A program made the position numbers and the translations under genes. Positions 1,554-59,740 of a DNA stretch of 64,000 nucleotides are shown one piece after another. The DNA is from a virus. The stretch's first letter is position 1; the number at the start of each line of letters is the position of its first letter. Under the pieces are notes generated by a model. That model ran no database searches. It was not told the origin of the DNA and saw nothing but the letters and a program-made list of their open reading frames with translations. The DNA is taken from positions 1-64,000 of the IMG/VR virus record IMGVR_UViG_3300045988_170206. The stretch is one strand, 5' to 3'.

Positions 1554-1582
1554 CACCCCCTCCCCAGTGGGGGATACATGAA

Positions 1583-3263: not shown

Positions 3264-3287
3264 CAGGCCACTCTGTTACACACACAG

Positions 3288-3327
3288 CCCCGCCAATGGT
3301 CTCACTCAGGCCTTGGCGGGGTTTTGT
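3288..3327 (+). terminator. Rho-independent terminator
   Basis: Stem CCCCGCCAA (3288-3296) / TTGGCGGGG (3313-3321) followed by TTTTGTG, 25 nt after the stop at 3261-3263. Confidence 0.7.
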
Positions 3328-3463
3328 GTCCCCAGAAACGCTTGTAGTGGGCACATTACAAGCCTTTGCGAGATACAAGCCACGCCATGCTGTACGCGAA
3401 TTGGGCGACCTGCCGGTCAGTATGATGGTTTCGCCCATCCGGCCCCGTAACTACAAGGGAAAC

Positions 3464-22402: not shown

Positions 22403-24898
22403 CTAGAAGGTGTCCCAGAAGGACTCGCGGTCGAGGTTGGCGCTTTCCTCACTGCTCAGTGCTGGCGGTTCCGGCTCGTCGCCCGTGTCGTCACCCTGGA
22501 ATGCCGACTGGAATGGATCGTCACCCGCCGGAGTCTCCTCGCGTGCGGGAACCATGTCGGTGTCGTCCTGGTCGCCGAAGGGGAAGAAAGCGTCGGTCTC
22601 TGCCGGGGCGGGCGTTGAGGGCGAGCTGTCTGCGTGCGCAGCGCCGATCCGGTCGAACATGGCCTTAGTGCTACTGCGCTTCCTACCAGAAGGACGCGGG
22701 GCTGCTGGAGCTGGCCTCGGCTCGGGAGCCGGGGGTTCGGCCTCCTCGTTAACGGGGTCGAGCTTGTCCCAGTAGTGGCCGATGTAGGACTCGAGGCGTT
22801 CCATGCCCTTCGTGTCGGGGGCGAGGACCGCTGCTCGCAGGTACGTGGGCGCGCCGTCGTTGATGTCGGCGATGCGCACTGCCACATCACCAGCGTTGGA
22901 GAGCTTGTACGGGAACTCGCTGGCTGAGTTCAGGCCGAGGTTTTCGGCGGCGCTCGCGTCGCTGGCTGACTTCGCAGTGATGCGCACGGAGATCAGCTCG
23001 GACACGCTCTTGGGGATCACGTCGTTCTTCACTCGGTGGGGGATGAAGATGGCGCGCATACCCAGGGCCGGGAACTCGGACACGAACCGCTCGATGAGCT
23101 CACGATATTCGCGAGCGTCTTCCTTGCCCATGGCGTTGGCGAGGGACATCATCTCATCGAGGACGACATACAGGAACGGGAAGGTAACTTCGGGGTGGTC
23201 ACGTCGGAACTCGAGGACGTTGACGTACCCGTACTGCTGCATGATGTTCTTGCGGCGTGGGGCTTCGGTGTTGACGAGATAGCGGAGCATGTCGATCACC
23301 GAGTCCACGGTGTACTCCTTACGACGCACGTGCGGCAGGTCGTAATTGGCGTACTCGCTGATCTGGTTCTTCGGGTCGCCGATGTAGAGGTGCAGGTCGT
23401 TGGGGCTCATGTACGCGCACATCTGGTTGAGGATGAGCTTGACGATCCAGGACTTGCCGCTTCGGGGCTCGCCGGAGACGACGATGGCGGGGGCTTTGAG
23501 GAGGTCCACGGCCTTGACACTGCCGTCGCCGGTTGTTCCGATAACGACGGGCATCTCGGTCTTGGGGTTGCGCACGAACTTCTGCGTGTCGGGGGATGCA
23601 GCATACATGTCGGCGAGGGAGATCATGTCGATCTTGGCTCCCTTGTAGATGCTGATGAACGCGCGAGAGCCGGACTCGGCGCTTGTGGCGTATGCGTTGG
23701 GGTATTCGAGGTTGCCGTTGTCGTCGTACTTGTAGATGTTGACGACTTCATCGGCGATTGCCTGGGTCTTCATGCGTGGGGTGCGGCTGATCGTCAGCTT
23801 GAACATGAAGGGGTTCTCGGAGGCATCCTTGAGGTCGGGGAGGAGATCTTCGCGCGTGCCTACCTGCTTGGCTGCGTCGCGGATCAGTTCAGCCCAGATC
23901 GCCCATTCCTTGCTGCCTTTACGGAGGTTGCGCATGTCTGCGAACTTGGGGCTGATGGACGGTAGGCCCTTCGTCAGGGTCTCGTAGATGAACTGGCGAG
24001 TCTGGGTGCCCTTCTGCATGTTCAGGTTCTCGAGGTCGGACTCGAGGGAGTCGTAGTCCACGTCCTCGGCGGGTTCCTCGTCGGGGATGAGGTCGTTCCA
24101 GTCCCAGCTGTCCGATTCCTGTTCAGGCTCAGGCTCGGGGGTGGGGGCGCTCGCGGGTTCCGGCTCGTCGAACACGGGGAGGGGCTGCGGCTCGATGACG
24201 GGGGCGGGTTCCGGCTCGGGGGCGGGGCGGCGCAGTTGCTCGCGCACGTCGTCTTTCTGGTCGATGATGTAGCCGCCGGCGAAGGTTGCGATGCCGATGA
24301 GGGCGGAGACGGCTGCGCCGACGAAGATGTAGTAGCCGACTGCGAGCGCTGGGAGGAAGTTCGATAGTAGCCACATGCCCGCGCCCACTACTGAGATAAC
24401 GCCGCTGGTCTTCATGGTGGCTGCACCCATGCCGCTCACGGATGCTGCTGTGTGGGTCTTCGCTGCGACCACAGCGGCTTTTGTAAACTCGTAGGAGTTG
24501 CGCCCGGCTTTCGACGCTGCCTGATGTGCGGCCTGGCTGATCGCCTCGGATGCTGTCTGCGGCTGCTGCCCTGACTGGCCGAAGGCTGCGGGCGGCGGGC
24601 CCTGCTGTCCGAAGGATGGAGAGAACGGGTCAGCGGACGGGCCGCCAAACGGCGACGGAGAGGGCGCGCCGAAACCGGATCGGGAGGAACCGAAGGGGTC
24701 ATTGCCGCCGCCACCGAAGGGGCTGTCGAACGAGGATGAGCGCGACGGGCCACCGAAGGGATCGTCGAAGGAACTGCTGGACGGGCCGGAGTCCATGCCC
24801 CAGATAGACTCGTCACCCATGCCGGGCGCGAACTCGGGTTCCTGGTTGCGGGCGTTGAAACGTGCGAGCGCGTCGTCGCCGTTGGTGGGGAGGGCCAT
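22403..24898 (-). CDS. FtsK/SpoIIIE-family ATPase, type IV coupling protein (TcpA/Orf21-like)
   Basis: Walker A VVSGEPRSGKSW and Walker B LYVVLDEMMSLA. Disordered FG-rich N-terminal tail, then TM segments (VISVVGAGMWLLSNFLPALAVGYYIFVGAAVSALIGIATFAGGYII), and an acidic C-terminal tail. GAAAGG RBS. Confidence 0.85.
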   Translation of the reverse strand: MALPTNGDDALARFNARNQEPEFAPGMGDESIWGMDSGPSSSSFDDPFGGPSRSSSFDSPFGGGGNDPFGSSRSGFGAPSPSPFGGPSADPFSPSFGQQGPPPAAFGQSGQQPQTASEAISQAAHQAASKAGRNSYEFTKAAVVAAKTHTAASVSGMGAATMKTSGVISVVGAGMWLLSNFLPALAVGYYIFVGAAVSALIGIATFAGGYIIDQKDDVREQLRRPAPEPEPAPVIEPQPLPVFDEPEPASAPTPEPEPEQESDSWDWNDLIPDEEPAEDVDYDSLESDLENLNMQKGTQTRQFIYETLTKGLPSISPKFADMRNLRKGSKEWAIWAELIRDAAKQVGTREDLLPDLKDASENPFMFKLTISRTPRMKTQAIADEVVNIYKYDDNGNLEYPNAYATSAESGSRAFISIYKGAKIDMISLADMYAASPDTQKFVRNPKTEMPVVIGTTGDGSVKAVDLLKAPAIVVSGEPRSGKSWIVKLILNQMCAYMSPNDLHLYIGDPKNQISEYANYDLPHVRRKEYTVDSVIDMLRYLVNTEAPRRKNIMQQYGYVNVLEFRRDHPEVTFPFLYVVLDEMMSLANAMGKEDAREYRELIERFVSEFPALGMRAIFIPHRVKNDVIPKSVSELISVRITAKSASDASAAENLGLNSASEFPYKLSNAGDVAVRIADINDGAPTYLRAAVLAPDTKGMERLESYIGHYWDKLDPVNEEAEPPAPEPRPAPAAPRPSGRKRSSTKAMFDRIGAAHADSSPSTPAPAETDAFFPFGDQDDTDMVPAREETPAGDDPFQSAFQGDDTGDEPEPPALSSEESANLDRESFWDTF

Positions 24899-26168: not shown

Positions 26169-28481
26169 TTAGTTGAGGGCTGAAAAGTCCCAGCCGTCCG
26201 AAGCGGGTGCCGCTTCTGTCGGCGGCTCGACGGCGGCCTCCTGTGCGCGTCGTGAGCGTCGGCGTAGCGGTGGCCCCGCTTGGAGGAGACTGTCGATCTC
26301 GCGTTGGAGGTCGTCGGGATCCTGGAACGCTGTTGCGCCACTCGAGGCCTCCTCAATGGCGGTGTCCTCGACCGCTTCGACAGAGCCGGTCTTAAACAGC
26401 TCGGACTGTGCAATACCGTCGGGGAGTACCACCTTCCCCAGGGTAACCTCTCCAGTGGACAGCTTGATAACAAACGCGCGTTTATAGGGCGATTCTGCGC
26501 CATCTTCGGATGTTTTACTGGTCGCTGTGGCGAGCATGGTGAGTTCATCCTTGAGGTAGCCGATGCTGAGCTTGTCGGCGATTTCGTTGCGGACGTTCGC
26601 GTCACGGATCGCGCCGATAGCGACCGACTGGACGTTCTCGAAGATCTTGAGCTTCGACCCTGCATCCATGAACATCGAGGGCTGGTTGCTGATGATGAGG
26701 TTGATGTCGCCCATCTTGCGGCCACCCGTGATAGCGGTACCGAGGATACCGGCAGCGCTGGGGAACTCGGCCCAACGCTGGAGCTCTTCCCACACGGTGA
26801 CGTTGAACTTACCCTCGCGCTTGCAGGTCAGGGAACGCACGTGGTGGATCGACGCTGCGGACAGCTGAGAGAGCTGGAGCTGCACCTCGTCCACCATGAC
26901 GGTGGCCTTCGACTTCATGCCGAAGGAGCACAGGACGACGCGGGCGTTGGCTACGTCTTCGGTGGAGACTCGGTTGGAGAAGACGCTGGCGCGGGAGCCG
27001 TCGGGCTCGAAGTACTCGGCGAGCTGGGCGCGCACGAACGTAAGGGACTTGATGTAGTCCTCGTCGCTGGCGCGGTAGTCTCCCATGGCGGCTCCGGTGC
27101 GGAGTGCTTCATGGCCATCTTTGATGACCTGGTAGACGTGGTAGAGGGTGAGGCCCTTGCTGTTCTTCCAGGTGCGCGCGTCGTCGCCGAGCACGCCCGC
27201 GTCGCGGTAGACGACACTAATTGCGTTCTTGAGGATGCTTTCGGCCCACTGGTAGGTGTGGAGGTGGGAGCCCATGAGGGCGCTGAGGTAGGAGAGCGTG
27301 TAGTTCACGCCCAGGCCGTAGGTGCCGTTCTCAGCGTCGATTGCGAGGTCGCCGGAGGTCATGATCTCAACGGGGTCGAAGTAGCTGCCCTGGCCTTCGG
27401 CCATGTTGAGGATGAGGCAGGAGTCGTGGTTGGCGTAGAAGCTGACGAGCGGCGTGTACTCGTCGCCTTCCACGTCGTTGATGGTGAGTCGGACGCGGGA
27501 GTACTTCATGAGTTCGTTGAGGAGGTTCTTCACGAAGAAGGACTTGCCGCCACCTGTTTCGGCGATGACGACGAAGTTTTCCGCGTCCACGTCGTTCGCT
27601 CGGAACTTGTAGAGGATTGGGTAGCCGGAGTTCACGTCGCGGGCGATGTAGGAGCCGTGTGTGCCGATGCGGCCCTGGTCGTAGCCGGTGAAGCGGGCGA
27701 TGATCTCGTCTGAGAGCACGTTCTTTCCGACGCGACCGAAGGACTTGCGGCTGTGGTCCATGCTGAACGGGGAGAACGCAGCGGTGAAGTCAGCGAGGTG
27801 CTGGACGACACGGTTGACGGTGATGCCTCTGTCGGTGCAGAACTGCTCGATCTTCTCGAGTGATTCGTCGAAGTCTTCACCACGGATGCCCATGACGATT
27901 GCGTGGCATCGGTACTCGAAGAACTCAAGCTGTCGCTCGGTGCTGGTTGCGTTGGAGAGGTAAACAACGCTTTCTTCGCGCCACTGGTCGCGTGCGAGGT
28001 CGGTGCGGTTCTTCTGGTACTCGAAGGCGTTGTCACCGATGCTCTTGTTTTCCTCAGCGGTGTTCTGGTAATTGCGTAGGAGTGCCTTGAGTTTGGGGTC
28101 TTCCCAGTTGATCCTAGTGGGGATGCTGTAGTCCGTGAAGAACATGCGCATCGTGGGGTGGAGGCGCTTGCGCATCTCGGCGCGGAACCGCATGGGGAAC
28201 GTGGTGCTGTAGCCGTCGAAGGACAGGAATACGACGAGGTTGTCCTTGCCGGAGAAAGAGGCTCGGTTGTTCGTGTAGAGGTTGTAGTCGCGCTCGGGGA
28301 ATGTGCGAGAGTCCCGCATCTGGGTGTTCGTCGTGAACACGTCGGCCCACACGTGGTACCAGGCGATGCGGTTCATCAGATCCCAGCGTCCCACTTTCTT
28401 GGGTCGTCCGGGTTCGTGGATGCGACCTCCGAAAAGGAGACGCACGAGCGGGTTGGTCTTCTTCGTTTTCGTTGCTGCCAT
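26169..28481 (-). CDS. VirB4-family conjugative T4SS ATPase (TcpF/PrgJ/Orf16-like)
   Basis: 770 aa. Walker A VVIAETGGGKSFFVKNLL and Walker B-like FNVTVWEELQRW. Size and context are typical of VirB4. Confidence 0.8.
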   Translation of the reverse strand: MAATKTKKTNPLVRLLFGGRIHEPGRPKKVGRWDLMNRIAWYHVWADVFTTNTQMRDSRTFPERDYNLYTNNRASFSGKDNLVVFLSFDGYSTTFPMRFRAEMRKRLHPTMRMFFTDYSIPTRINWEDPKLKALLRNYQNTAEENKSIGDNAFEYQKNRTDLARDQWREESVVYLSNATSTERQLEFFEYRCHAIVMGIRGEDFDESLEKIEQFCTDRGITVNRVVQHLADFTAAFSPFSMDHSRKSFGRVGKNVLSDEIIARFTGYDQGRIGTHGSYIARDVNSGYPILYKFRANDVDAENFVVIAETGGGKSFFVKNLLNELMKYSRVRLTINDVEGDEYTPLVSFYANHDSCLILNMAEGQGSYFDPVEIMTSGDLAIDAENGTYGLGVNYTLSYLSALMGSHLHTYQWAESILKNAISVVYRDAGVLGDDARTWKNSKGLTLYHVYQVIKDGHEALRTGAAMGDYRASDEDYIKSLTFVRAQLAEYFEPDGSRASVFSNRVSTEDVANARVVLCSFGMKSKATVMVDEVQLQLSQLSAASIHHVRSLTCKREGKFNVTVWEELQRWAEFPSAAGILGTAITGGRKMGDINLIISNQPSMFMDAGSKLKIFENVQSVAIGAIRDANVRNEIADKLSIGYLKDELTMLATATSKTSEDGAESPYKRAFVIKLSTGEVTLGKVVLPDGIAQSELFKTGSVEAVEDTAIEEASSGATAFQDPDDLQREIDSLLQAGPPLRRRSRRAQEAAVEPPTEAAPASDGWDFSALN

Positions 28482-28491: not shown

Positions 28492-29736
28492 TTATGAGCG
28501 GGCGGCTAGGCTACCGAAGCCCTTCATGAGGTCTTCGTACTGGCTGGTCAGCTGAGCGTAGGAGCTGACGCGACGGTTGGCGTTTTCTGGGTACTGGGTG
28601 AACATGGGCACGTAGGTGAGGGTATCCGCGTAGAGGGTGTGCGAGGTGATGAGTCGTCCCCGTGGGAAGTTGGTGTAGCCCGCGACGGAGCTGAGGCCGT
28701 TCGCTGCGTACACCGTCCGCGACGCGGAGCCGGTCACCATGTGCGAGTGACTGTGGACTGTGCGGTCCACGCAGATGACGGCGTTGTAGTTGTTGTCCTG
28801 GATGAGCTTGTCGTGCAGAAGCGCTGCGGTGGGTCTGCTCGTGAAGACCACGGGGGCGTGCAGCGCAGGGTCGTCGCTGGACATGGAGTCGTCAACCCAG
28901 GGGAACTCTCGATAGTGAATGCGGGTCACTGCGGAGGGGGACTCGATGAAGATGAGGCGGGGCCGCATGTTGAGGCGGTCTTGGAGGTAGTCGCGGAACC
29001 CGAGCATGAAGCTGGTCAGGTACTTCATGTGACCGAGGTCTTTGACCCTGTAGATGGGCTTGTTGCCCTGATAATCCACCGGCGGAAAGTTCGTGATGCG
29101 CGGGCCACCGTTTCCGCTCGTGTGAGCGCTCTGGAGCTGAGCGCGAGCGGCCTTGAGCGTTGCCTCGGACCTGCGCGCGTGCTCTTTCAGGGTGGCGAGA
29201 CTGTCGTTCATGTCGCTGAGGATCCCGACGGACACCTCTGCTTGCTCACGGCGCTCTTCCTCGGAGCGCTCGTATGCGGCAATGACGTTGGATGATGACT
29301 CCGCAATGAGCGCAAGGGCTGCGCTCGGCAGAGTCTTCCCCTCGCGGACTGATTCGCGGAAGGCGCGCAGGATGTCCTTGTCGCCGGATACGTCGTCGGC
29401 GAGTACGAGGTCGGTTCCCGCTGCCAGGATCCCCTCAAGGAGGTCTGGACTTTCGAGGAGGTAGGAGTCCGTGTAGATCGCGCCGTTCAGGCCGGTGATG
29501 GCCATGGCGAGTGCCGTGTCTGGCTCGTCATTGACGTAGATGAGCTGAGCGTCTTGCAGTCGCGGGTCTTTGAGGGCAGCGATTGCTTCGGGCGCTTCTT
29601 CTTCCGTGTCGTGGATGACGACAGCTTCGACGGTCAGCGCGCTCGGCGCTGTCGCGAGGAAGTCTCTGACGGATGCGGCGATGAGCCAGTCAGGGAACCT
29701 GTCTGGCTGGATCGTCGTGGAGATGAGGGCTTTCAT
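28492..29736 (-). CDS. Hypothetical protein (414 aa): receiver-like N-domain, coiled coil, degenerate ParA/MinD-like C-domain (TadZ/CpaE-like architecture, tentative)
   Basis: ATG at 29736 in an ATGA overlap with the upstream stop (the Arg/Pro-rich extension was rejected). Coiled coil EEERREQAEVSVG...ATLKAARAQLQ. The C-terminal alpha/beta region lacks a P-loop. Confidence 0.6.
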   Translation of the reverse strand: MKALISTTIQPDRFPDWLIAASVRDFLATAPSALTVEAVVIHDTEEEAPEAIAALKDPRLQDAQLIYVNDEPDTALAMAITGLNGAIYTDSYLLESPDLLEGILAAGTDLVLADDVSGDKDILRAFRESVREGKTLPSAALALIAESSSNVIAAYERSEEERREQAEVSVGILSDMNDSLATLKEHARRSEATLKAARAQLQSAHTSGNGGPRITNFPPVDYQGNKPIYRVKDLGHMKYLTSFMLGFRDYLQDRLNMRPRLIFIESPSAVTRIHYREFPWVDDSMSSDDPALHAPVVFTSRPTAALLHDKLIQDNNYNAVICVDRTVHSHSHMVTGSASRTVYAANGLSSVAGYTNFPRGRLITSHTLYADTLTYVPMFTQYPENANRRVSSYAQLTSQYEDLMKGFGSLAARS

Positions 29737-31091
29737 CGCTGCGGTCCTGTGAGGGCTTCGATCTGTCGGATGAACGGGTCGCGGTCCCACACGATGCGGG
29801 GGGCGACGCTGGCGAGGAAGTTGAGGGTGCTCGGGTTCGCGCCGCCGGGGTGCAGCCATGCTGTCTCGGAGAGTAGGCGGCAGAGCTTGTTGCTGATCTG
29901 GTCGGAGTCGTAGATCGTGTTCAGGAGGGTTGCGAACCCTTCAGGTGACCCTTGGGGGGCAAGGAAGTGCGTCTGGGTGGGGTGCGCGTCGTTGAGGGCA
30001 GTCAGGAATGCTTCCGTCTTGCCAGTTGCCTCCAGGGGTACGTCAACGACCGTGTAGTCGAAGTAGGGGATGAATGGCAGGACGGCCTCGAGGTCGTCGA
30101 GGTTCGTGCTTTTGTCCTCCCTGCCGTCTTCGTCCACTCTCGCCCCGTTGGACATGAAGTAGATGCCGCCGTCGAGGAACGGTGAGCTCTCCTTCATGGA
30201 CGGGCGGGTGGCTGCAAATCCGTCGGCGTTCTCCAGGAACGCGAGGATTGGGTGTTCGTCTGACTGGAGGTCGATGTAGAGGACGGTGTGCCCACTCTTG
30301 GCGTAGGCATCCGCGAGCGCGGCACTGTAGATGGCTGTCTGCTGGCTGTCTGCGGATAGGACGGCGTTGACGCGGGCTCCTGTGCGGAAGATCGGCATGT
30401 CCGGGTTCGCCGATGGGGTGAGTTGCGGGGTGTGTGCACTGAGTGGCTGGAAGTCGCGTAGCTGTGGTGGTGGGCAGGCTGCGAGGCGGTCTTCGACGGT
30501 GAGGTTTTCGTCGTCGAAGAAGCCGGTGTCTGCGTGGCTTGAGCCTGCTGCGCCAAGGCTGAGGAGTTCATTGGGGATTGCGCTGGCGGCGCTGTAGGTA
30601 CGGTCGTCGCTGATGGGCTGCGAGGTCAGGGTGGGAGAGGTGATGCGCGTGTCGGTGTAGGTGTCGGCGATGTCCTTGAGCGACAGCGTGAGGAGGTCAG
30701 CGAGGAAGGAAGCCTCAAGTCTATCTGACAGTGGAATGACGAGGCTGTGCGGGTGGTTAACGTTTGCTCGATACTGGTTGATGCGGTCCTCACGCGCCTT
30801 CTTCACGAGGGCGATGCTCTCGATCTTCTCGGCTTTGCCGAGGAACATGTTGAGGATCTGTAGGTTGGTATCCAGGAGGTTGCCGGTACCAAGCGTAGTA
30901 TCGCTGTCAAAGATGATGAGGCGGTCGATGCCGATGGCGCTCGCGTCAGTGCTGGAGTAGCGTCCATTCAGCTCTACAACAGAGTTGAACACCTCGTATG
31001 CGTTGGAGTCAACCTGGTTGCGCGCGCTGCGCAGGAGCGCGTCTGCGGAGGCCTTCTCAACGATGAGCGCGATGCTCATAGCCTTTTTCAT
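29733..31091 (-). CDS. Hypothetical protein (452 aa): receiver-like N-domain plus degenerate ParA/MinD-like domain (TadZ/CpaE-like, tentative)
   Basis: N-terminus SIALIVEKASADALLRSAR...DRLIIFDSD looks beta-alpha-beta. VNAVLSADSQQTAIYSAALADAYAKSGHTVLYIDLQSD occupies the place of the ParA deviant Walker A + Switch region but lacks KGGxGK(T/S). GAAAGG RBS. Confidence 0.6.
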   Translation of the reverse strand: MKKAMSIALIVEKASADALLRSARNQVDSNAYEVFNSVVELNGRYSSTDASAIGIDRLIIFDSDTTLGTGNLLDTNLQILNMFLGKAEKIESIALVKKAREDRINQYRANVNHPHSLVIPLSDRLEASFLADLLTLSLKDIADTYTDTRITSPTLTSQPISDDRTYSAASAIPNELLSLGAAGSSHADTGFFDDENLTVEDRLAACPPPQLRDFQPLSAHTPQLTPSANPDMPIFRTGARVNAVLSADSQQTAIYSAALADAYAKSGHTVLYIDLQSDEHPILAFLENADGFAATRPSMKESSPFLDGGIYFMSNGARVDEDGREDKSTNLDDLEAVLPFIPYFDYTVVDVPLEATGKTEAFLTALNDAHPTQTHFLAPQGSPEGFATLLNTIYDSDQISNKLCRLLSETAWLHPGGANPSTLNFLASVAPRIVWDRDPFIRQIEALTGPQR

Positions 31092-31115: not shown

Positions 31116-32075
31116 TTACTGGATGGGGGTGGTGGTGCCGTCAGCGTGGATGATGCGTGTGGGGCGCAGGAAGCGCTTGTAGTTGACCTGGCCTGTGGAT
31201 TGGCGGATCGCGTCGGATGCGGAGAACGTCAGGAGTGCGAAGTACTTCTTCGCGAGGGCACCGATCTCGTGCGGGGGCATGTAGGAGGCCGATGCCCAGT
31301 TGGCCTCTTCGCACAGTGCAGTCTTAAAGGCGATTGCCGCCTCGTGCAGATCCTCGTAGCTGCCGGTGCCTTTGGTGGTGGCCAGAAGGTACACGTCGCC
31401 AGGGGTGGTGGCGTGTTCTTGGAGGGCTGCGAGGTTTTCGTAGGTGGGCCGTAGCACGTCGTTGCGCAGTGAGGGGTTCTCCGTGTTGGCGAGATCTTCG
31501 TTGAGCCCTTCGATGCGCTCGTCTTTGCCGATGCTACCCATGTAGTCAATGTGACCGACCATGATGCCGCGCCTGCCGGCTTCGCGCATCGCGTATGCGT
31601 AACCCTCGTAGTGGTCGAAGACCGCCTGAGCGGTGTCGTTTCCGACGCGGGAGCCTTTGTTGGCGTGAATGAAGATTCCCATGCGTCCGCCGGTCTTGAA
31701 GTAGCAGACGTAGGGCGGCGTGTTCTCGATTCGGTAGATGGCCCAGATGTTACTGGTGGCCATCCGGTAGTCGTTGGCGAGCTGTTCCATGAGGTCAGCT
31801 CGGAACTCGCGTTCCTCGAGGATAAGGTGCCGGATGATGAGCGACGCGACCGATGGGATGAGGACGATGCAGACGATCAGCTTGGCTCCGAGGCCCGCGC
31901 CTGAGCCGATCAGGTAGGCGAGATCCAGGAAGAATGCGATTGCGCCTGCGCCTGCTGCCATGTAGAGGCGGTTACGCCACCGCTCTTTGCCGTTCACTTG
32001 CGGCTTGTCGAGTGTCAGGGGGATGGAGATGGACTCGTCTCCCACCTGTGGCCGCATGTCGTTTCTGGTGCTCAT
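31116..32075 (-). CDS. T4SS-associated membrane protein (two N-terminal TM helices + cytoplasmic domain)
   Basis: TM helices LYMAAGAGAIAFFLDLAYLIGSG and LIVCIVLIPSVASLIIRHLIL followed by a ~230-aa soluble domain. The position next to the wall hydrolase suggests a VirB3-like or assembly role. No motif recognised. Confidence 0.5.
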   Translation of the reverse strand: MSTRNDMRPQVGDESISIPLTLDKPQVNGKERWRNRLYMAAGAGAIAFFLDLAYLIGSGAGLGAKLIVCIVLIPSVASLIIRHLILEEREFRADLMEQLANDYRMATSNIWAIYRIENTPPYVCYFKTGGRMGIFIHANKGSRVGNDTAQAVFDHYEGYAYAMREAGRRGIMVGHIDYMGSIGKDERIEGLNEDLANTENPSLRNDVLRPTYENLAALQEHATTPGDVYLLATTKGTGSYEDLHEAAIAFKTALCEEANWASASYMPPHEIGALAKKYFALLTFSASDAIRQSTGQVNYKRFLRPTRIIHADGTTTPIQ

Positions 32076-32128
32076 GCCCCTATTTTACTGTGTTTTTGAC
32101 GGTAAAGGCTGGTATGTGGGGTGCGTGT

Positions 32129-33088
32129 TTACCCGAAATGGACGTATCCGGTAACCCACTGGTTGAGGTAGCCCTTCTGGAAGCCAACATCGTGAGTTGC
32201 TGCGGAGGACTCGTCGGGGGAAACATTGAGGCCGGTTGCGCCGTAGTCGGAGGCGTGGACGATCCATCCGTCCCCGACGTAGATGCCGACGTGGCCGGGG
32301 CCCGTGATGATGTCGCCGGGAGTGAGGACTGACTCGTCACCGTTGTAGGGGGTAGCGTGGGCAGCGAAGAAGGCGCTGTTGGCCGATAGGAGGCTGGTGA
32401 CCTGCGCGGAGGATGACTGTCCGACGACAATGCGGTCCTGGTCAGCTCCGAGCTGTACGGGGTTGCCAGAGTCGTCCATGGTCCACCCGGCCATAAGGAT
32501 GAGGGCGCTCACCCAGCCGGAGCAGTCGTAGCCGGTGGGGCCGCGGCCTCCCCAGTCGTAGGAGTAGTAGCCCTGTGCAGGGAGGTTCGCCATGGCGTAT
32601 TTGGCGTTCGCGAGCATGGCGGGGCCGATTTGGCCGGGGGAGGCTGCGACGGTCGGAACACCGTTACCGCCGTCGTATGCGTTGACAGCGGATGCGGCAC
32701 TGACGGTTCCGTTGTTGCCAATGCCCATAACCTCGGGGGAGACCTTATCCGACAGGTTGGTGAGCCAGAACCACCCGCCGCCCGCGAGGACGAGCGCGAC
32801 GATAGCGAAGATCGCGAGGACGGTCACCCAGCCCATCATGACGAGGCTGAGGAGCGCATCGACGGCGCGGGCGGCGAACTTGATTGCCCCGAGGGTTGCC
32901 TGTCGGGCGATGCGAATGATCTTGGTGGTGTCGCTGTTTTCGCTGCCCGTTGCCTTCGCTGTCCCCTCGAGGGCGGCTTTGGAGGCAACGTCTGCTGTGG
33001 CGACGGCGGCGTTGAGGCCGACGCGAGCGGTGAGGGCGACGATCTTGAGGGAGATCGACAGGCATAGGAGGAGGAAGGAGAGAATCAC
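32129..33088 (-). CDS. Membrane-anchored NlpC/P60 (C40) peptidoglycan hydrolase of the T4SS
   Basis: Catalytic Cys in GYDCSGWVS, His in GPGHVGIYVGDG, and a third residue in WIVHAS. N-terminal TM segments. GTG start in a GTGA overlap with the VirB6-like gene. Confidence 0.85.
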   Translation of the reverse strand: MILSFLLLCLSISLKIVALTARVGLNAAVATADVASKAALEGTAKATGSENSDTTKIIRIARQATLGAIKFAARAVDALLSLVMMGWVTVLAIFAIVALVLAGGGWFWLTNLSDKVSPEVMGIGNNGTVSAASAVNAYDGGNGVPTVAASPGQIGPAMLANAKYAMANLPAQGYYSYDWGGRGPTGYDCSGWVSALILMAGWTMDDSGNPVQLGADQDRIVVGQSSSAQVTSLLSANSAFFAAHATPYNGDESVLTPGDIITGPGHVGIYVGDGWIVHASDYGATGLNVSPDESSAATHDVGFQKGYLNQWVTGYVHFG

Positions 33089-47080: not shown

Positions 47081-48727
47081 TCAGGCGGTCTCGCCCTGCT
47101 TGCTGTTGCGGCGCGAACGGAAGGCGAAGAACCCAGCTGCGCCCGCCATGATGGTAGCGGCAGAGCCGATCAGGCCGATGCCTGCGCCACCCGTGAACGG
47201 GAGGAGCTGCTTCTTTGTGTCCACGATGGTGCGGGAACCACCCGCGTTGTCCGTGGTGTCTGCGTCGCGCTGTGCGTCGGCGAACGCTGCGGCCATGTCA
47301 GTGACCTCACCGGCGACAGTCAGGTCGAACTTGACGGGGCTCGGTAGGAGGTTGTAGCCCTCGGGGGCCTTGGACTCGACGAGGCAGTAGGAGTGCAGGT
47401 CGGTCTGCTCTGCGCCGTTGTACCAGTTGGAGAGCTGGAGGCCGGAGACCTTTGTGAGGCCCTGAGCGTCGGTGGGTGCAGACGTGGCGATGGGCTCGCC
47501 GGAGACGGCGGCAGCGTCACAGACGGTACCACCTGTGGCGCGGTAGACCTTGAACTCCGCGCCCGCGAGCACAGTGCCGTCAGTCCCCGTCTTCTTGAGC
47601 ACGATGTCACCGTACTTGGAGACGACCTCGGGCGACTTTGGCGGCTTGTTGGGGGTCTCAGGCGGGGTGTTGCCGGGGGTGCCCGGCTTGTTGCCGTTAT
47701 TGATGAGCCAGTTGTTTGACGGGATGAACCAGGCCTGGTTCTTCAGCTCACCCGTGACGTTGTTCGCCGTCACGCGGGTGACGATCTCGACGGTGAACTT
47801 CTTGCCGGTGTTGGCGGCGAGCTTGTTCAGGCCGTCCGATGTCACGGACCAGCCGAGCTGGTTGCCGGTCTGGGAGAGCACGTAGTCCGCGCCTTCGGTG
47901 AGCGCAGTGTCGCCGACGGAGACCTTGCTGGACACGTACTCGGTGCCCTCGGGGAGGGTGTCCTGCACGTAGTAGTAGCCCAGGTCTGCGCCGTTGACCT
48001 GGCCGTCGCCGTTGCTGTCACCTGCGAGGACGGTGGAGGCGAGTGTGTAGGTCAGGTTCTCGCCGACCTTGTAGCCGTCCTGGTTCTGGGTGCCGGTGTT
48101 GCCGTCCTTGACGGTCTTCTCGATGCTGTTCTCCGTGTTCTTCGGGTAGATGTCGATGTCGTACATCCAATCCGAGTGATTACGAGGGTTCGTCTGAGGC
48201 ATGATCGCCAGGAACGGCGCTGCTGGCGTGATCGCCGATGCGTCACCTGGGTAGTTCGCCAGGTTCTCGTTGACGATGTACACACCGAGCTCGACGGTCG
48301 CTGATGCGTCGCCGGTGGCGTTGGTGGTGACGCTCGTCGCCTTCGTGAAGGTGTAATCCTTGCCGTCGATGGACAGCTTGCCGGAGGCGACGATCTCCGG
48401 GGTGAGCGTGAGGTCCGCGGCCTTCTCTGCGATGGCCATGCCTGCGGTGGAGTGCAGGTCGATGCCGTCGATCTTGTAGAGATCGAACGTCACGTCGGCG
48501 AGGGGTTCGCCGAGTGCCTGGCGGGCCTGGTCGGAGAGCGGCGTGCCGTCAGCGCGGGTACCGCTCTCCACACCCTTGATCTTGTGGATCTTGATGGTGC
48601 CCTGGGTGGGGCCACCGTCGAGAATGGGGCTGGGGGCTGCGTTGGCGATACCTGCGCCCATGAGGCTCACGAGCGCGAGGGCGGCGGTCGCGGATGCGAC
48701 GGTGTATCGGTGGGTCGTCTTCTTCAT
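47081..48727 (-). CDS. Major (shaft) pilin, SpaA/FimA-type LPxTG protein
   Basis: Signal peptide ...GAGIANAAP, pilin motif DIDIYPKN, E-box YCLVESKAPEGYNLL, and sorting signal LPFTGGAGIGLIGSAATIMAGAAGFFAFRSRR. GAAAGGAAC RBS. Confidence 0.85.
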   Translation of the reverse strand: MKKTTHRYTVASATAALALVSLMGAGIANAAPSPILDGGPTQGTIKIHKIKGVESGTRADGTPLSDQARQALGEPLADVTFDLYKIDGIDLHSTAGMAIAEKAADLTLTPEIVASGKLSIDGKDYTFTKATSVTTNATGDASATVELGVYIVNENLANYPGDASAITPAAPFLAIMPQTNPRNHSDWMYDIDIYPKNTENSIEKTVKDGNTGTQNQDGYKVGENLTYTLASTVLAGDSNGDGQVNGADLGYYYVQDTLPEGTEYVSSKVSVGDTALTEGADYVLSQTGNQLGWSVTSDGLNKLAANTGKKFTVEIVTRVTANNVTGELKNQAWFIPSNNWLINNGNKPGTPGNTPPETPNKPPKSPEVVSKYGDIVLKKTGTDGTVLAGAEFKVYRATGGTVCDAAAVSGEPIATSAPTDAQGLTKVSGLQLSNWYNGAEQTDLHSYCLVESKAPEGYNLLPSPVKFDLTVAGEVTDMAAAFADAQRDADTTDNAGGSRTIVDTKKQLLPFTGGAGIGLIGSAATIMAGAAGFFAFRSRRNSKQGETA

Positions 48728-48752
48728 GGAGAAGGTTCCTTTCTTTTGGGGG

Positions 48753-50999
48753 TCAGTTCTCGTCGCTCGAGGCAGAGCGGCGCTTGTATGTGAGGGTCAT
48801 TCCTGCGACTCCGAGGAGCGCGATGGTGGCGATGCCTGCGATGAGGATGATGCCGGTGCCGCCGGTCATGGGCAGACGCGGGCTGACCGTGACAGGAGTC
48901 AGTTTACCCACAGTTTTGGCTGTAGATTGCGCCGACTCGACATTGCGGTTGCGCCCGTCGGAGATGCCGGTTGCGTGCGCAGTGTTTGTCACATCGCCCT
49001 GTCGGATGTCGTCGTCGTTCGTGTCGGATGTGGCCGTGCAGGTCATGGATGCGCCTGCGTCGAGCGTCGTGCCGGGGCATGTGACCGTTGACAGGGGCTT
49101 GTGGCCGTTGTAGGAATCCTCGACGACGGTCACGTCGTGCAGGCTGATGTCGCCGGTGTTACGCACGGTGAAGGTCCAGGTGAGTTTGTCGCCGGAGTGG
49201 AACTCTGGCTTATCTACGGTCTTCTCGATTTCGAGCGCCGGCTTGGCGGGGACGTAGGTGGATGAGTCGGAGGACGGGTCGGACGTGACAGGGATGCCTG
49301 CGGGGCTCATGCCGGTGGCCTTCGCCGTGTTCGTGATGGTCTTGCCTGCGTCAGGGAAGTCAGCGTCCACGAGGGGGCTGGTGATGTTCTTCCAGGTGCA
49401 GGTGTTGCCGGGCTGGACGGTTGCGCAGGCTTCGGTGACGGTGTTGACGGTGTTCGGGTCGGTGCCTGTGTAGCCGCCGTCGTAGGTGTCGTCGATGATG
49501 TGGACGTTCGTCAGGGGGACGTTGCCGGTGTTGGTGGCCGTGTAGGTCCAGTGGAGTTCCGTGGCCGTGTCGCCGTAGGTCTTTTCGGTGACGGTCTTAG
49601 TCAGGGCGATGGAAGGGGTTTCGGGGGTGAAGGTGCCGTGCCATTCGCGTGCTTCGCCGGAGCGCGCCCAGGTGTCGATGATTCGACCGTCGCCGTGCGT
49701 TCCTCGTTCTGACAGCGCACATTCGGGGTGGAGCTTCGGGTTCGCGTTGTTCACGTTCCAGCCGTGCACACCGGAGGGGGTGTCGGAGTTTACGCCTGCG
49801 AGAGCTTCCCATGGGGTGCGGGTGTTCTCTACGTAGCGGCAGGACGTGAGGTTACGGTCGTCCCAGTAAACGGTTGCGTCACCTGCGGAGGGGCCGTTGA
49901 GGGCCTTGATGGTGAGGCCTCCAAGCATTTCTACGTCACTGAACATCAGGTGCATCTCGTTACTCGATGCGGCCTTGAGGGTCCAGTCCACGGCCTTGTC
50001 TGCGTCGATGTTGATGGTGACGCTGGTCTTGCCCTGGACGGTAGTTTCCTTGCCTGCGGCGGTGAATGTGTAGGCGGCGAACTTGTCGAGGCCTGTGATG
50101 ACTGCCTGGGCTTTGTGGTTGCCGAGGTCTTTCAGTTCGACGGTGGGGGTGCCCAGCGTCTTGGGGGTGGGGAGGATACTCTCGGGGAGGTCGGCTGCGG
50201 GGGTGGTGAAGAACAGCTTGTAGCGTTCGCCGCACTTGTAGTTGGTGCGGTAGTGGTTGACCCAAGAGCCGGCGAGTTGCCCGTTAGGTGCGTATGCGTC
50301 GTAGCCGGAGCCGTCACGGATAGCCCAGTCGTCGTATGACTGGTAGGTCGGCTCACAGTAATCCTGCCCGTCCTTCGTGACGATCTTGTTGATGCCGGAC
50401 GAGGTGGCGGCAATGACTGACTGGATGCCACCGTACTCACGGGCCACGAATTGATACCTGTAGCCAGTCGGTGAGACAGCGATGAGGCTGACCTCGCCGA
50501 TAGAGCCCGGCTGCGGGGTTGAGGGGTTGTCCCAGTCGAAGGAGGCTCGCTGGCCGACGAACACCTTGTCGGCCCATACGCGACCTGGGATCGTCTTGTC
50601 ATCATGACTAACGGCCTGGATGTTCCAGAAGAACTGGTTGTCCGAGTACTGGTTGTTCGCGTCGATGTGGGGCACGTAGTACACCTGAAAGATGCCGTCG
50701 TGCTTTGCGTAGTGGGAGGCCATGCCGCCCTGCCACGCCGTCATGTTGGCGATGTTGCCGTCCTCGTCGAGGACGTACTCGGGTTGCTTTCCAAGGAAGG
50801 TGTACCACAGGTATTCACCCTTCTTCACGTAGACGTAGAAAACGTCGGGCGCGAAGGTGGGCGTGTTGTAGGCGGGCACCGTTTCCGCGTGTGCTGCCTG
50901 TTGGACGGTGGGGGTAGCAACAAGTCCCACTGCTGCGATGGCGGCAACTGCGAGCGCAGTAATTGCTCGCCGCAGTCGGGACGGCTTTCTGGATACCAT
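48753..50999 (-). CDS. LPxTG surface adhesin / candidate tip or ancillary pilin with DUF11-like repeats
   Basis: ATG at 50999 with GAAGGAG RBS. Signal peptide ...ATPTVQQAAHAE. Two repeats of the type TATNTGNVPLTNVHIID / TVRNTGDISLHDVTVVED. C-terminal LPMTGGTGIILIAGIATIALLGVAGMTLTYKRR. Confidence 0.8.
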   Translation of the reverse strand: MVSRKPSRLRRAITALAVAAIAAVGLVATPTVQQAAHAETVPAYNTPTFAPDVFYVYVKKGEYLWYTFLGKQPEYVLDEDGNIANMTAWQGGMASHYAKHDGIFQVYYVPHIDANNQYSDNQFFWNIQAVSHDDKTIPGRVWADKVFVGQRASFDWDNPSTPQPGSIGEVSLIAVSPTGYRYQFVAREYGGIQSVIAATSSGINKIVTKDGQDYCEPTYQSYDDWAIRDGSGYDAYAPNGQLAGSWVNHYRTNYKCGERYKLFFTTPAADLPESILPTPKTLGTPTVELKDLGNHKAQAVITGLDKFAAYTFTAAGKETTVQGKTSVTINIDADKAVDWTLKAASSNEMHLMFSDVEMLGGLTIKALNGPSAGDATVYWDDRNLTSCRYVENTRTPWEALAGVNSDTPSGVHGWNVNNANPKLHPECALSERGTHGDGRIIDTWARSGEAREWHGTFTPETPSIALTKTVTEKTYGDTATELHWTYTATNTGNVPLTNVHIIDDTYDGGYTGTDPNTVNTVTEACATVQPGNTCTWKNITSPLVDADFPDAGKTITNTAKATGMSPAGIPVTSDPSSDSSTYVPAKPALEIEKTVDKPEFHSGDKLTWTFTVRNTGDISLHDVTVVEDSYNGHKPLSTVTCPGTTLDAGASMTCTATSDTNDDDIRQGDVTNTAHATGISDGRNRNVESAQSTAKTVGKLTPVTVSPRLPMTGGTGIILIAGIATIALLGVAGMTLTYKRRSASSDEN

Positions 51000-51081
51000 A
51001 TCTGCTCCTTCTGGCTGATGTTTCCTGAACAATCCTAGCATTTTCCAGGTGCCCCTCTTCTACTTGTATCGGGGCATGTCG

Positions 51082-51128
51082 AAGGGGGAGGGGATTCCAA
51101 CATGGTGCTGGTCCCCCTCCCCCCCCTT
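51082..51128 (-). terminator. Imperfect G/C hairpin between the giant surface-protein gene and the adhesin gene
   Basis: AAGGGGGAGGGGA (51082-51094) pairs with TCCCCCTCCCCCCCCTT (51112-51128) with a one-base bulge. Lies 16 nt after the stop at 51144. Confidence 0.35.
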
Positions 51129-51143
51129 ATCGGTGAGCGCGGG

Positions 51144-54100
51144 TCAGTTGTCCGCGTTCTTGCGTCGGCGTGCCAACACGATCAGCGCTGCGGCTGCTGC
51201 GAGGATGCCGCCTGCGGCGCTGGTTGCGAGCACGTGGTGGCGGATCCAGTTGATGACCTGCCCGAAGGTGGAGGCGTTGACATACACGTCGCTGATAGTC
51301 GTCTCGGTGACGTTGCCTGCCATGTCGGTGGCCTTGAGGACAACCGTGTGCGCGCTCGTGGACTGCGGCAGAGTGCCCGTGTAGATCCCATTCTCGTCGG
51401 AGAGGAGCTGCATAGGCTTTCCGTCCACCTGGGCCTCGAGAGTCACGGTGGTCATGTCTCGGGGGGTGACGGTGAAGTCGCGGCTTTCGGAACGGTAGGC
51501 CGCGTCGGTTCGGATGCCGGACACCTGGAGCTCAGGGTTCGTGGAGTCCACGACGAAGGAGTAGCTGAGGCGGCTCACCTGGTCGAGGCCTCCCTCAGTC
51601 TGGGAGACAACCTGGATGAGGTAGGTGCCTTCCTTCTGGAATGCTGCCTTGTCGATGTGGTAGGCGTACACGTAGTCCCCGGCGTCTCCGCCCGTGCGGG
51701 TGGTGGACTGGAGCGCGGGGGCGACGGGGTAGGGTGCGCCGTCGAGGGTGACCTTGATGTCGGTCTTGTCCTCGTTGAGGGCTTCGACGGTGGTCTCCTC
51801 GAGGTCAACGTCCACGGGGGCTTGGAGGTAGCGGCCCTGGTAGTTGGTGCCGGTCACGTCCACGTTGGAGCCGTAGCGGTTGAGGATGAACTCGACGCTG
51901 GCGGTCTGGTCGTTGCCTGCGAGGTCGGTGCCCTTGATGGTGAGGGTGTAGAGGTCGTCGTACTTGGCTTCATCGGGGATCTCGGAGAGGTCGAGGTAGC
52001 CGCCGCTGACTGCGGGCTTGAAGACGTTGCCCTTGCGGCCTACGAGGACGGCGGTGACGCTGCTCGTGTCCGCGTTGGTGTCACTGTAGGTCACGCCGAC
52101 GGTGGGGAGCTGGTAGTAGGCGGTGCCCTTCGTGAGGCCACTGATGCTGATTTCCGGCTTCGTGGTATCGACGATGAACTCGCCTTCGGTGACCTCGTTG
52201 CTGGGGTTGCCTGCCTGGTCGGTGGTGCGGAACCCGAAGGTGTGGACTCCCTCGGGGAATGTCACGGTCGCCGTGTGCGTGGATCCGACGCTGCTCCAAC
52301 CACTGATGCTGCCGGTGCCGGTGAGCTGGTTGAGGGCGGGGTCGAAGTGCTCTTCGACGACGGTGATAGTGGCAGTACGTACTTGGTTGTAGTACTTGCC
52401 GTTGCGCACGTCGGTGGTGTTCCAGGCGACGGAGACGACGGGGGCTACCTTGTCTACGGTGAAGCGGCCCGATGTGAAGGTGTTGGACTGGTGGCCCACC
52501 ATGTCCGCTGCGGACAGGGTGAAGTCGTAGTCCGTGTTGTCGGAGAACGTGATGGTGTTCGTCCAGGTGTCGCCGGAGTGGACCCATGTGCCCCACGTGC
52601 CGACGAGGCCGGTGGTGGTGAGGCTACCGGGGTCGAAGTTGTTGTCGCGGACGGTAACCGTGGCGTGGCGGTCGGTGTTGTAGAAGCCGGACTGGTTGGT
52701 CTGGTCGAACGTGACCGTGAGCTCGGGGGCGGTTGCGTCCACGCTGATGGTGCGGCGCGTTTCGGCCTCGTAGCCAGCATTGTCGGCGACGTGGATCCAC
52801 ACATCCTGAGCGGGGTATTCACCGGCGAGCGTCAGGGGGACGGATACGCCGGTGACGAGGTTCTTGTCGGTGGCGGTCACCTGGACTGCGGGGTTATCGA
52901 CCTGGCCGTCGGGGGAGACGGTTGCAGTACCCAGGGTTGTGTCACCGTATCCCCAGGTGAGGGTACGGATGCCAGAGTGTGTGGCGACGGCGGTGAGAGT
53001 GCCGGATGCGGAGTCCTTGTAGAGGGGCACGCCAGCGCTGTTGGTCGCTGCTGGGGCTCCGAGTTCGACGCTCAGGTCGGTGCTGGTGATCGTCGTGTTC
53101 GAGTCCTCGGACACGAGGCCGTCGGGGCGCTGGCTGTCGCTGATGTTGCCCACCTTGTCGGTGGCGGTAGCGGACACGAAGCCCTTGAAGCCGCTGGGGA
53201 TGTCGAACTCGGCCACGCCGGAGTTGATGGGGGCCGACTCGGTGCGGATGACGGTGCCGGACGGCGTGTAGAACGTCATGAGAGCGTTACCCATGCCCGA
53301 AGATGGGGCGGGGTCGGAGACCTGAGCCTTGATGCGTGTGGCTCCCTGAACGAACAGGCCGTAGCGGTCGGAACCGTTGATGGTCTTGCCCGGCGCGTAG
53401 GACGGGTTCACGACGACGAAGTTCGTGATCGTCGGTGCCTGGTCGTCCACGTAGAACGTGTAGTTGCGGGCACTGACGTTACCTGCGAGGTCAGTCATGG
53501 TGATGGTGACCTGGTAGGAACCATCCTCCGCGCGTGCGGCTTTCGCGTAGTCCACGTCGAGGGTTCCAGTAGTAGCGGCTTCACCGGCCTTGTCGCTGGG
53601 GTTGACGGTGGCGACTTGGGTGCCGTTGACGGTGGCTGTCATGGTGGCGATGCCATTGTCGTCGTGGGCGGTGAAGCTGTTGATCGCCCCGCTGGTTGAT
53701 GAGAACCATGTCCCATCCGTGGCAGTGATGTCGGTGGTCATCGTGGGGGCCTGAGTGTCCACGGCTGCGTGCTTGGATGGCCAGCCGAGTGCGGTTGCGA
53801 CGTGGAGTGTCTGGGAGCGGCCCAGCGGGTCGGTGACGGTGACGGTGGGGTCGTTGACGCTGCCGGTGATGGTGGCAACGCCGTCGGGGGAGACGGTCAT
53901 GCCACTGCTGGGGTCGTTGTAGGTCTGCGCGAGGCCACCGCCGCCCTGTGGGGTGAGCTGCACCTGGATGGGGGTGCGGGAGAACACGCCGTAGGGGGTG
54001 ACGTTCATGTCGCCGGGGTTGCGGACAGTGGCGTTGATGGTGGCCTGGCTGGTGGATGTGGAGATCGTGCCGGTCCAGGAGGTGCGGTGGAGGCCGCGGT

Positions 54101-55560: not shown

Positions 55561-56211
55561 TTATTGCCAACTATGGGCTTCTGCTACCAAGGTTACGCGA
55601 CTGAGCGGGTCGGTTGGCTGCGCGGATGGTTGTGGCGCAAGGTTTGCGGCAGGAATCTCGGTGTCCTCGAAGAAGGCAGTGTCTGCTTCTTCGGTGGTTT
55701 CCGTGCTTGCGTCTGAGAAGAACGTGGTGTCGTCGTCTTCTCCGACGTTAGCGGAGCGCTCGAGCGGTGCCGGTGCGGGTGGCTGTGTGGTTCGCGTGGG
55801 GGTGTCTGCGACCTGTAGGGGTGCAGGCTGAGCTGGCGCAGGCTTGGGGGCGGCAATGGGCGCAGGGGCGACTGTGGTGGGCTGTGGTGGGGTTGGGGTG
55901 AGGTCGCCGGAGAGCACGCCGCTTGTGTCGTCGGCGAGTGTACCGCTATCGAACGAGTCACTGTTCGTCGCGTCGTTCAGGGGCGAGTGTTCACCGAGAG
56001 ATAGGGCGGACATCTTGCGGTACGCTTCGACGGCTCCGTCGCTACTCAGTGTCGAGGTGAGGGTTTCAACGGTGTCGGTGAACGCCTGTCCCTTGAGTTC
56101 CCTGCGTGCTGCTGGGATGTCCCATTGGAAGAACAGGATGAGAGCGGTGAAGAACAGGATGAGGGCTGCGACTGCGAGGCCGATTGCCGTTGCGGTGAAT
56201 ACGGTCATCAC
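55561..56211 (-). CDS. Bitopic membrane protein with Pro-rich and acidic C-terminal region (216 aa)
   Basis: The start (GTG 56211 or ATG 56208) overlaps the kinase stop (GTGATGA). TM segment FTATAIGLAVAALILFFTALILFF. Confidence 0.6.
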   Translation of the reverse strand: MMTVFTATAIGLAVAALILFFTALILFFQWDIPAARRELKGQAFTDTVETLTSTLSSDGAVEAYRKMSALSLGEHSPLNDATNSDSFDSGTLADDTSGVLSGDLTPTPPQPTTVAPAPIAAPKPAPAQPAPLQVADTPTRTTQPPAPAPLERSANVGEDDDTTFFSDASTETTEEADTAFFEDTEIPAANLAPQPSAQPTDPLSRVTLVAEAHSWQ

Positions 56212-59733: not shown

Positions 59734-59740
59734 TGTCTGC

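Follow-up and report, generated by a model that had tools for sequence, protein, structure and literature searches.

Three putative pseudo-ParA/MinD protein families, two in a pXO16 tip-type transfer locus and one beside an actin-like ATPase, on a large element of the human gut

Three proteins are the subject of this analysis of a 64,000-nucleotide stretch of DNA (the window), positions 1 to 64,000 of the IMG/VR virus record IMGVR_UViG_3300045988_170206. We call them A (28492..29736, 414 amino acids (aa); N-terminal alpha/beta domain, long helix and C-terminal alpha/beta domain), B (29733..31091, 452 aa; N-terminal alpha/beta domain, acidic linker and degenerate ParA/MinD domain) and C (61845..63206, 453 aa; N-terminal alpha/beta domain, coiled coil and pseudo-MinD domain). 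The reading that we favour, by a modest margin over its denial, is that they are non-paralogous proteins in which a small N-terminal alpha/beta domain is joined to a dead MinD/ParA (SIMIBI) domain, and that they act as nucleotide-independent scaffolds, a role proposed because their catalytic residues have been lost and because of gene context and analogy. As far as sequence comparison can tell, A and B are conserved components of the conjugation loci of the tip type, known from plasmid pXO16, and C belongs to a different module, beside an actin-like ATPase.

The three open reading frames (ORFs) are present, all on the minus strand, where an earlier sequence-only reading of this DNA had located them; domain and motif coordinates given below lie on the same strand. 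The longest ORF for A opens at 29859 (28492..29859), which would produce a 126-nt overlap with B. The start at the ATG at 29736 is backed by homologues of 405–414 aa, and overlaps the stop codon of B as ATGA, suggesting translational coupling between the two genes. Searches with the window versions of A, B and C against Pfam, NCBIfam and PHROGs gave either no match or coiled-coil noise.

All three proteins had been assigned a C-terminal ParA/MinD-like domain with the Walker A motif lost, an assignment that is well supported for C, supported for B through its homologues and only tentative for A. The AlphaFold model of C (predicted local distance difference test score (pLDDT) of 88.7) consists of an N-terminal alpha/beta domain (residues 1–100, 62907..63206, pLDDT ~96) with the order b1-a1-b2-a2-b3-b4-a4, which is conserved across the family, a disordered stretch (residues 127–144), a coiled-coil helix (residues 148–202, 62601..62765, pLDDT mostly 82–94) and a C-terminal domain (residues 245–453, 61845..62474, pLDDT >90). 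Comparison of this model with the PDB by Foldseek yielded 129 matches at E≤1e-3, with FleN as the best (5.3e-6). The top 50 were all MinD/ParA-type or near SIMIBI proteins (FleN, MinD, FlhG, BcsQ, Wzc, ParA, CooC and HypB), with E values from 5e-6 to 8e-5, a probability of 1.00 and target template-modelling (TM) scores of 0.5–0.58 over ~210 columns. In the viral structure library BFVD, a 456-aa "ParA" aligned end to end with C (E=1.8e-4), and a "CpaE_like" domain protein was matched as well. A profile of the C-terminal domain, searched against the PDB, retrieved no sensible match apart from the bacterial tyrosine kinases (BY-kinases) BceF, Wzc and Etk (E 0.017–1.4), and a PDB sequence search with C alone returned only coiled-coil or chaperonin noise. 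The Foldseek, BFVD and profile matches strongly support a MinD/ParA fold for the modelled C-terminal domain.

An exhaustive HMMER search recovered 176 representative homologues of C at E≤1e-3, so that the family comprises at least 176 clusters. Most of these relatives are 600–1250 aa long, the added length being coiled coil expanded to several hundred residues, and coiled-coil Pfam matches are the sole Pfam matches found in them. The C-terminal domain of the family covers ~210 residues with the consensus FVFSGSxES...LIVDLxxES...VLSxGL...VDW..RL.EL..SGYxVIxxxGxLS..VGR...SLR. No Walker A motif (GxxxxGK[ST] or KGG) was found at the strand-1/helix-1 loop of A, B or C, nor any canonical P-loop in the family alignments. 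At the P-loop position C reads LHVLFPGTGGAVQT (62409..62450), and the segment in which the P-loop and strand 2 are expected is FPGTGGAVQTT...VCIIDLN. Both P-loop lysines are missing throughout the C family. The Walker B motif (hhhhDxP), which is present in B as FDYTVVDVP and possibly in A as AVICVD, has its Asp replaced by Gly in C, within GKQIILVGPPANS (62091..62129; QIILVGPP), and the family is likewise devoid of this Asp (consensus VIxxxGxLS). Near the pocket, D288 is invariant and S263 and D296 nearly so.

For B, the case comes from its relatives. Its whole length can be aligned with a 498-aa protein in the same position of a 256-kb low-G+C (Hadza) contig, numbered L001 among our comparison loci (BLASTP E=4e-9), and in this alignment the B sequence SADSQQTAI stands opposite GERGTGVTT. 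A third lineage, represented by a 667-aa protein of locus L021 (GDRGSGITS / VVVVDCPVD), matches the L001 homologue at 4e-13, B at 0.002 across the whole domain and the family hidden Markov model (HMM) at 1.8e-11. This L021 protein exceeds the gathering threshold of the Pfam family CbiA, the CobQ/CobB/MinD/ParA nucleotide-binding domain (26.0 vs 25.4 bits). On AAA_31 the L001 homologue stays just below the cut-off of 27, at 26.1 bits, and it also matches MipZ, BcsQ, SRP54 and the PHROG "ParA-like partition protein". When profiles of the B family were searched against the PDB, the mycobacterial ParA-like protein 4pfs was the best match (E 0.004–0.007) with the Walker A and B regions co-linear, followed by Mrp/NBP35, Soj, MinD, CapB, McdA and Etk, nearly all of the ParA/MinD type. 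Homology of the C-terminal domain of B (29733..30386) to ParA/MinD is thus supported by profile and family comparisons. Within this domain, the degenerate P-loop reads ARVNAVLSADSQQ (30339..30377), the segment expected to hold the P-loop and strand 2 reads LSADSQQTAIYS...VLYIDLQ, and the Walker-B-like strand is FDYTVVDVPLE (30030..30062). Even the relatives with the best-preserved loop have Glu/Asp and Val/Ile at both lysine positions, which argues that the B family is a family of pseudo-ParA proteins, of which the window B is the most degenerate form.

The remainder of B comprises an N-terminal domain delimited by family alignments (residues 1–150, 30642..31091), which is found alone in pXO16, and an acidic linker with the conserved pattern LSLGxxGxSHxDTGFxD. 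This motif, LSLGAAGSSHADTGFFDDE (30507..30563), is a candidate docking or phospho-site. Its invariant columns between the window and the L001 type are L177, G180, G183, S185-H186 and D188-T189-G190-F191, and in L021 it appears as "NTGFTDE". No counterpart of the linker was found in PDB or Pfam searches, and B contains no coiled coil.

In protein A, the AlphaFold2 (AF2) model places an N-terminal domain at residues 1–115 (29392..29736), with strands at 2–6, 17–20, 38–42 and 64–68, helices at 23–29 and 48–55, a pLDDT of 61–77 up to residue 66, and conserved FIYV and ITGLNG motifs. A central long helix, a putative coiled coil, follows at residues 138–206 (29119..29325, pLDDT <50), and then a C-terminal alpha/beta domain (residues 215–414, 28492..29094), modelled at pLDDT 70–85 for residues 215–408. 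The P-loop position of this domain reads IYRVKDLGHMKYLTS (29011..29055) and a Walker-B-like strand reads YNAVICVDR (28762..28788). None of the aligned relatives has a canonical P-loop, the loop reading K[DE]xGxxxYLTS. About 34 of the 50 top Foldseek matches of A, by our count, are SIMIBI NTPases, including cDPG synthetase, SRP54/FtsY, GPN, MeaB, dethiobiotin synthetase, NifH/BchL, MobB, ParA delta, ParF, FlhF, HypB and the TadZ structure 3fkq. A SIMIBI-like fold of the modelled C-terminal domain of A is plausible, and we propose it tentatively.

The sequence-only reading had also described the N-terminal segments as receiver-like and the proteins as TadZ/CpaE-like. The alpha/beta character of the N-domains is borne out by the order of their secondary structures, but not their receiver nature: none of the three matched Response_reg or TadZ_N in Pfam, the N-domain profiles of B and C found no receiver or flavodoxin in the PDB, and the N-domain of C, confidently alpha/beta, has four strands as against five in a receiver. 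The coiled coil ascribed to two of the three proteins was recovered as a central coiled-coil-like helix common to A and C. Membership in TadZ/CpaE had to be abandoned, because the signature lysine, a tad locus and a demonstrable atypical receiver domain are all missing. TadZ itself keeps the signature KGG lysine and binds ATP, whereas both lysines are gone here, and A and C carry an inserted coiled coil and B a long acidic linker. A tad locus includes the CpaF/TadA ATPase, TadB/C and a Flp pilin, whereas the neighbours of A and B are VirB4-like and FtsK-like ATPases and an NlpC/P60 hydrolase, and those of C are an actin-like ATPase and genes for FHA, PP2C and kinase proteins. The likeness that remains is one of layout, an N-terminal alpha/beta domain followed by a MinD-like domain with an atypical nucleotide site, as in 3fkq, and of encoding within the locus of an envelope-spanning machine, for which TadZ/CpaE has been proposed as a hub, not a motor (PMC11407121).

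The surroundings of A and B agree with the earlier placement of these genes inside a conserved core resembling a type IV secretion system (T4SS), all of its members for which coordinates follow lying on the minus strand. Directly downstream of A is a VirB4/HerA-like ATPase (26169..28481; Pfam DUF87), 35.5% identical to a pXO16 protein, and further along an FtsK/SpoIIIE-type coupling ATPase (22403..24898; Pfam FtsK_SpoIIIE, E=4.6e-11). On the other side, upstream of B, are a 319-aa protein of unknown family (31116..32075) and an NlpC/P60 hydrolase (the two together 31116..33088), in an order kept in loci L001, L005, L018 and L021, and a 1628-aa protein. The order of the whole locus recurs in L001, L018, L021 and the 350-kb Bacillus thuringiensis plasmid pXO16/pBTHD789-1 (L005). 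The tip locus of pXO16 has been defined experimentally as a novel single-stranded DNA transfer system, distantly related to T4SSs and with almost no annotated parts (PMC9673590, PMC6199540).

All tip-type loci recovered (L001, L005, L018 and L021) have a homologue of A at this position, that of pXO16 (BTF1_RS29415) being a 412-aa protein (WP_001108657.1). Homologues of B stand at the corresponding position in L001, L020 and L021, and pXO16 encodes there a 306-aa protein of the B family (BTF1_RS29420, L005:10547-11467) with the N-domain only (hmmsearch E=7e-7). The gene of L018 at the B position shows a degenerate P-loop-like motif by eye and no HMM match (E=7.4). Hence the window shares with the pXO16 tip locus the gene order, the A homologue, the VirB4-like and FtsK-like ATPases and the NlpC/P60 hydrolase, and differs from it in the length of B, in the presence of C, of which no homologue is detectable in pXO16, and in host phylum and G+C content (62% in the window). 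Among the plasmids of PLSDB, the VirB4-like protein matches those of the pXO16 type (35.5%) and Bacillus and Paenibacillus plasmids of 136–216 kb (~24%) only, all of them typed as "non-mobilizable". As a separate observation, a SpoVG gene and an SNF2/DEAD-box helicase gene follow the FtsK-like ATPase in L001 (18751-20678) and in pXO16 (L005:20756-22742), and a 231-aa protein and an HD-domain protein take this position in the window.

Protein C had been noted to lie next to an actin-like ATPase, and this linkage holds in every informative locus. The 3' part of the actin-like gene (63308..63970, minus strand; Pfam MreB-like_C, E=7e-14) is directly upstream of C and runs off the end of the window; the corresponding gene of L019 encodes 397 aa. 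An actin-like gene directly precedes C in all five loci that include upstream sequence, down to 25–30% identity. After C, and conserved together with it, come genes for a 208-aa and a 493-aa protein (59741..61858, minus strand). By phmmer, a homologue of the former is next to C in five of six loci (L019, L022–L024 and L026), and a homologue of the latter then follows in three (L019, L024 and L025). In the 493-aa protein, inspection of the sequence shows basic and then hydrophobic residues at the N-terminus, a possible membrane anchor. These four genes form a module (59741..63970) that is kept in differing surroundings and down to ~25% identity; after it, the window and L024 both have genes for FHA, PP2C and Ser/Thr kinase proteins and for giant immunoglobulin-like (Ig-like) surface proteins.

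Several features around this module are recorded here in their own right. The FHA protein, PP2C phosphatase and Ser/Thr kinase (56208..59952), encoded directly after the module in the window and as the same set in L024, could serve in phospho-regulation of the actin module or of the Thr-containing linker motif of B. Between the actin module and the T4SS-like genes (47081..55535) are encoded a SpaA-type sortase-dependent pilin, a DUF7507/DUF11 surface protein and a 1463-aa Ig-like surface protein, possibly adhesins for mating aggregation by analogy with the aggregation of pXO16. In a distant C-family locus (L025:1-2771), a T2SSE (CpaF/VirB11-type) ATPase and two 326-aa proteins are encoded a few genes upstream of the actin-like/C pair, a possible sign of a connection with a Tad-like or other filament system; this is the one C-family locus with such an ATPase nearby. 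The N-terminus of the 208-aa protein (61232..61858) shows a strand and two helices (K.TNV.I.VD..LY.DVV.P...LIVTLL.GY) that resemble a ribbon-helix-helix by eye. A PDB profile search gave no support for this protein as a ribbon-helix-helix or ParR-like adaptor. The idea of C itself as a ParR-type adaptor fails too: it does follow the actin-like gene, but is a coiled-coil pseudo-MinD protein of 453 aa (to 1250 in its relatives) with no DNA-binding signal.

According to the scaffold reading, the dead MinD-like domains would have become modules for nucleotide-independent dimerisation and docking. In the tip-type conjugation machine, A and B would work in the cytoplasm as scaffolds or assembly factors that connect the VirB4-like and FtsK-like ATPases with the membrane channel, and the TGFxDE motif in the linker of B would be a docking site. 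C would dimerise through its coiled coil and link the neighbouring actin-like filaments to a partner, for which the 208-aa and 493-aa proteins are candidates; the task of the actin-like/C module would be to position or segregate the element, or the apparatus that transfers it. These positioning-hub and partition roles, which the sequence-only reading had suggested, we infer by analogy. MinD/ParA relatives are known to position envelope machines and conjugative DNA, as described for TadZ/CpaE, BcsQ, VirC1 and FlhG (PMC11407121), and the ParA of the gonococcal T4SS is a further precedent (PMC8716806).

The closest of these precedents differ from A, B and C in instructive respects. VirC1 of Agrobacterium and the gonococcal T4SS ParA are likewise ParA/MinD proteins encoded with a conjugative type IV system, in which they bring the DNA substrate or relaxosome to the channel (PMC11407121, PMC8716806). 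They are, however, canonical Gram-negative ParA ATPases with a ParB or VirC2 partner, whereas A and B appear catalytically dead and lie between core channel genes of a Gram-positive, pXO16-type system in which the relaxase was not identified. The best structural matches of the C-terminal domain of C are FlhG/FleN, MinD and BcsQ (E 5e-6 to 5e-5, target TM 0.5–0.58). These proteins place flagella, the divisome and cellulose synthase at set sites, and MinD and FlhG carry a membrane-targeting helix. They are active ATPases with a deviant Walker A that form ATP-dependent dimers, whereas C has no catalytic residues and possesses additional N-terminal and coiled-coil parts. The BY-kinases (Wzc, Etk, BceF and CapB), also strong Foldseek matches of C, resemble it in having MinD-like domains on coiled-coil/periplasmic parts of export machines, but retain Walker A, A' and B as well as a tyrosine cluster at the C-terminus, all of which are missing here.

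A number of points weigh against the scaffold reading. The model of A is mediocre, with an overall pLDDT of 57.8; its best PDB match by Foldseek has an E value of 0.012, with none at or below 1e-3; 11 of its 50 top matches are GT-B glycosyltransferases; and a profile of the A family finds nothing useful in the PDB, only coiled-coil or chaperonin noise. The ParA/MinD fold of B is assigned through its homologues. The existence in pXO16 of a B protein reduced to its N-domain implies that at least one proven conjugative system can do without the ParA-like domain. C might act in partition alone, with no tie to the T4SS.

From the first of these points arises the rival that survives best, to which we give a probability not far short of even: A would not be SIMIBI/ParA-like at all, but a lineage-specific alpha/beta component of the tip channel whose likeness to ParA reflects generic Rossmann-like topology. 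In addition to the Foldseek statistics above, which come with TM scores of ~0.2, this explanation is favoured by the empty Pfam profile search and by hhalign comparisons of A with the B and C families, all below 3% probability. It has to contend with the large SIMIBI enrichment among the structural matches, which includes ParA delta, ParF, FlhF and TadZ, and with the strand-loop-helix-strand order and hhhhD strand of the domain, which fit the ParA layout.

Somewhat behind it, and in our opinion possible without being the better bet, is the view that C has no part in conjugation and serves an actin-like (ParM/Alp-type) system, as accessory factor or adaptor, in segregating an element of 135–150 kb. 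The constant pairing with the actin-like gene in varied surroundings speaks for it, as does the distance of ~31 kb that separates C from A and B. Known ParM/Alp adaptors are small DNA-binding proteins, however, and not pseudo-MinD coiled-coil proteins; the conserved 493-aa protein with its possible membrane anchor belongs to the module, and the FHA, PP2C and kinase genes downstream are atypical of a partition cassette.

A broader proposal would join both modules, and as a whole we regard it as unlikely. The actin-like/C/208-aa/493-aa set would be a new cytoskeletal module in which the variable coiled coil of the C family (50 to >700 residues), ending in a dead MinD domain, acts as a length-setting tether of actin-like filaments to the envelope, and which positions a conjugation or pilus apparatus or segregates very large extrachromosomal elements. 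Gram-positive tip-type systems would independently have adopted A and B, each a dead protein of MinD/ParA fold, as core assembly factors, and the invariant Thr-Gly-Phe acidic motif of B would be read by the element-encoded FHA/kinase/phosphatase set.

As for the origin of the three proteins, 61845..63206 had been called a third copy, and all three had been taken for mutual homologues. Pairwise BLASTP among A, B and C detects no similarity (E≥1.9), and hhalign of the family profiles gives less than 3% probability for whole proteins, C-domains and N-domains, even after enrichment of the families. The label of third copy is therefore misleading, and we have dropped the idea of paralogues: at the level of sequence these are three separate, non-paralogous families with differing distributions. 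A similar three-part layout, a C-terminal fold that is probably common to all three and their presence on one element could still be explained by ancient paralogues of a single TadZ-like ancestor, diverged past recognition, but we judge this improbable given the absence of similarity in any domain, the lack of a coiled coil in B and the separate distribution of each family, with A homologues occurring in pXO16-type Bacillus plasmids, only the N-domain of B in pXO16, and no match of B or C by tblastn in PLSDB. Just as doubtful is the notion that the domains are not dead and bind a nucleotide or ligand through a non-canonical pocket to act as switches, on the model of TadZ, which binds ATP without detectable hydrolysis: B relatives do keep a GxxGxG[VI]T[ST] loop and a Walker-B-like hhhhDxP, and C keeps GTGGAVQTT and the conserved residues near its pocket, but the signature and catalytic lysines are missing in every aligned member of the B and C families, the window B has no glycine-rich loop whatsoever (SADSQQTAI) and the Walker B Asp has become Gly in the C family.

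A, B and C are kept at 83–99% identity on many metagenomic contigs, the longest of 135–150 kb. The element family to which these contigs belong has a G+C content of 62% and almost all of its genes on one strand from ~8 kb on; it is recurrent in human gut metagenomes and classed as viral in IMG/VR (L006–L017). Megablast of the locus against PLSDB and INPHARED gave no match, no relative was confirmed when the VirB4-like alignment was scanned against the representative genomes of GTDB, and a second scan of IMG/VR, with the A-family alignment, recovered window-type contigs only, so the family is absent from the plasmid, phage and reference-genome collections that were searched. A pMP7017-type bifidobacterial megaplasmid was considered as the host element and rejected, because tblastn of the VirB4-like protein against PLSDB matches Bacillus and Paenibacillus plasmids only. 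At the left end of the window (15..5149), on the opposite strand, a choline-binding-repeat protein whose N-terminus is metallo-beta-lactamase-like is encoded together with a GH16 glycoside hydrolase; these genes are cargo, unconnected with the transfer genes.

The host element, 135–150 kb long with 62% G+C, thus recurs in the human gut outside the collections searched. Components of pXO16-type systems are almost all unannotated, and plasmid typing tools call their carriers non-mobilisable; this analysis offers the first leads on the structure and function of two conserved unknown genes of this type of conjugation. Among bacterial positioning ATPases the ParA/MinD proteins are the principal group, and ATP-driven dimerisation is believed to be essential to the way they work. 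Families that have kept the fold without its two lysines, and are conserved both in a DNA-transfer machine and next to an actin-like ATPase, would show that this fold has been reused as a passive scaffold.

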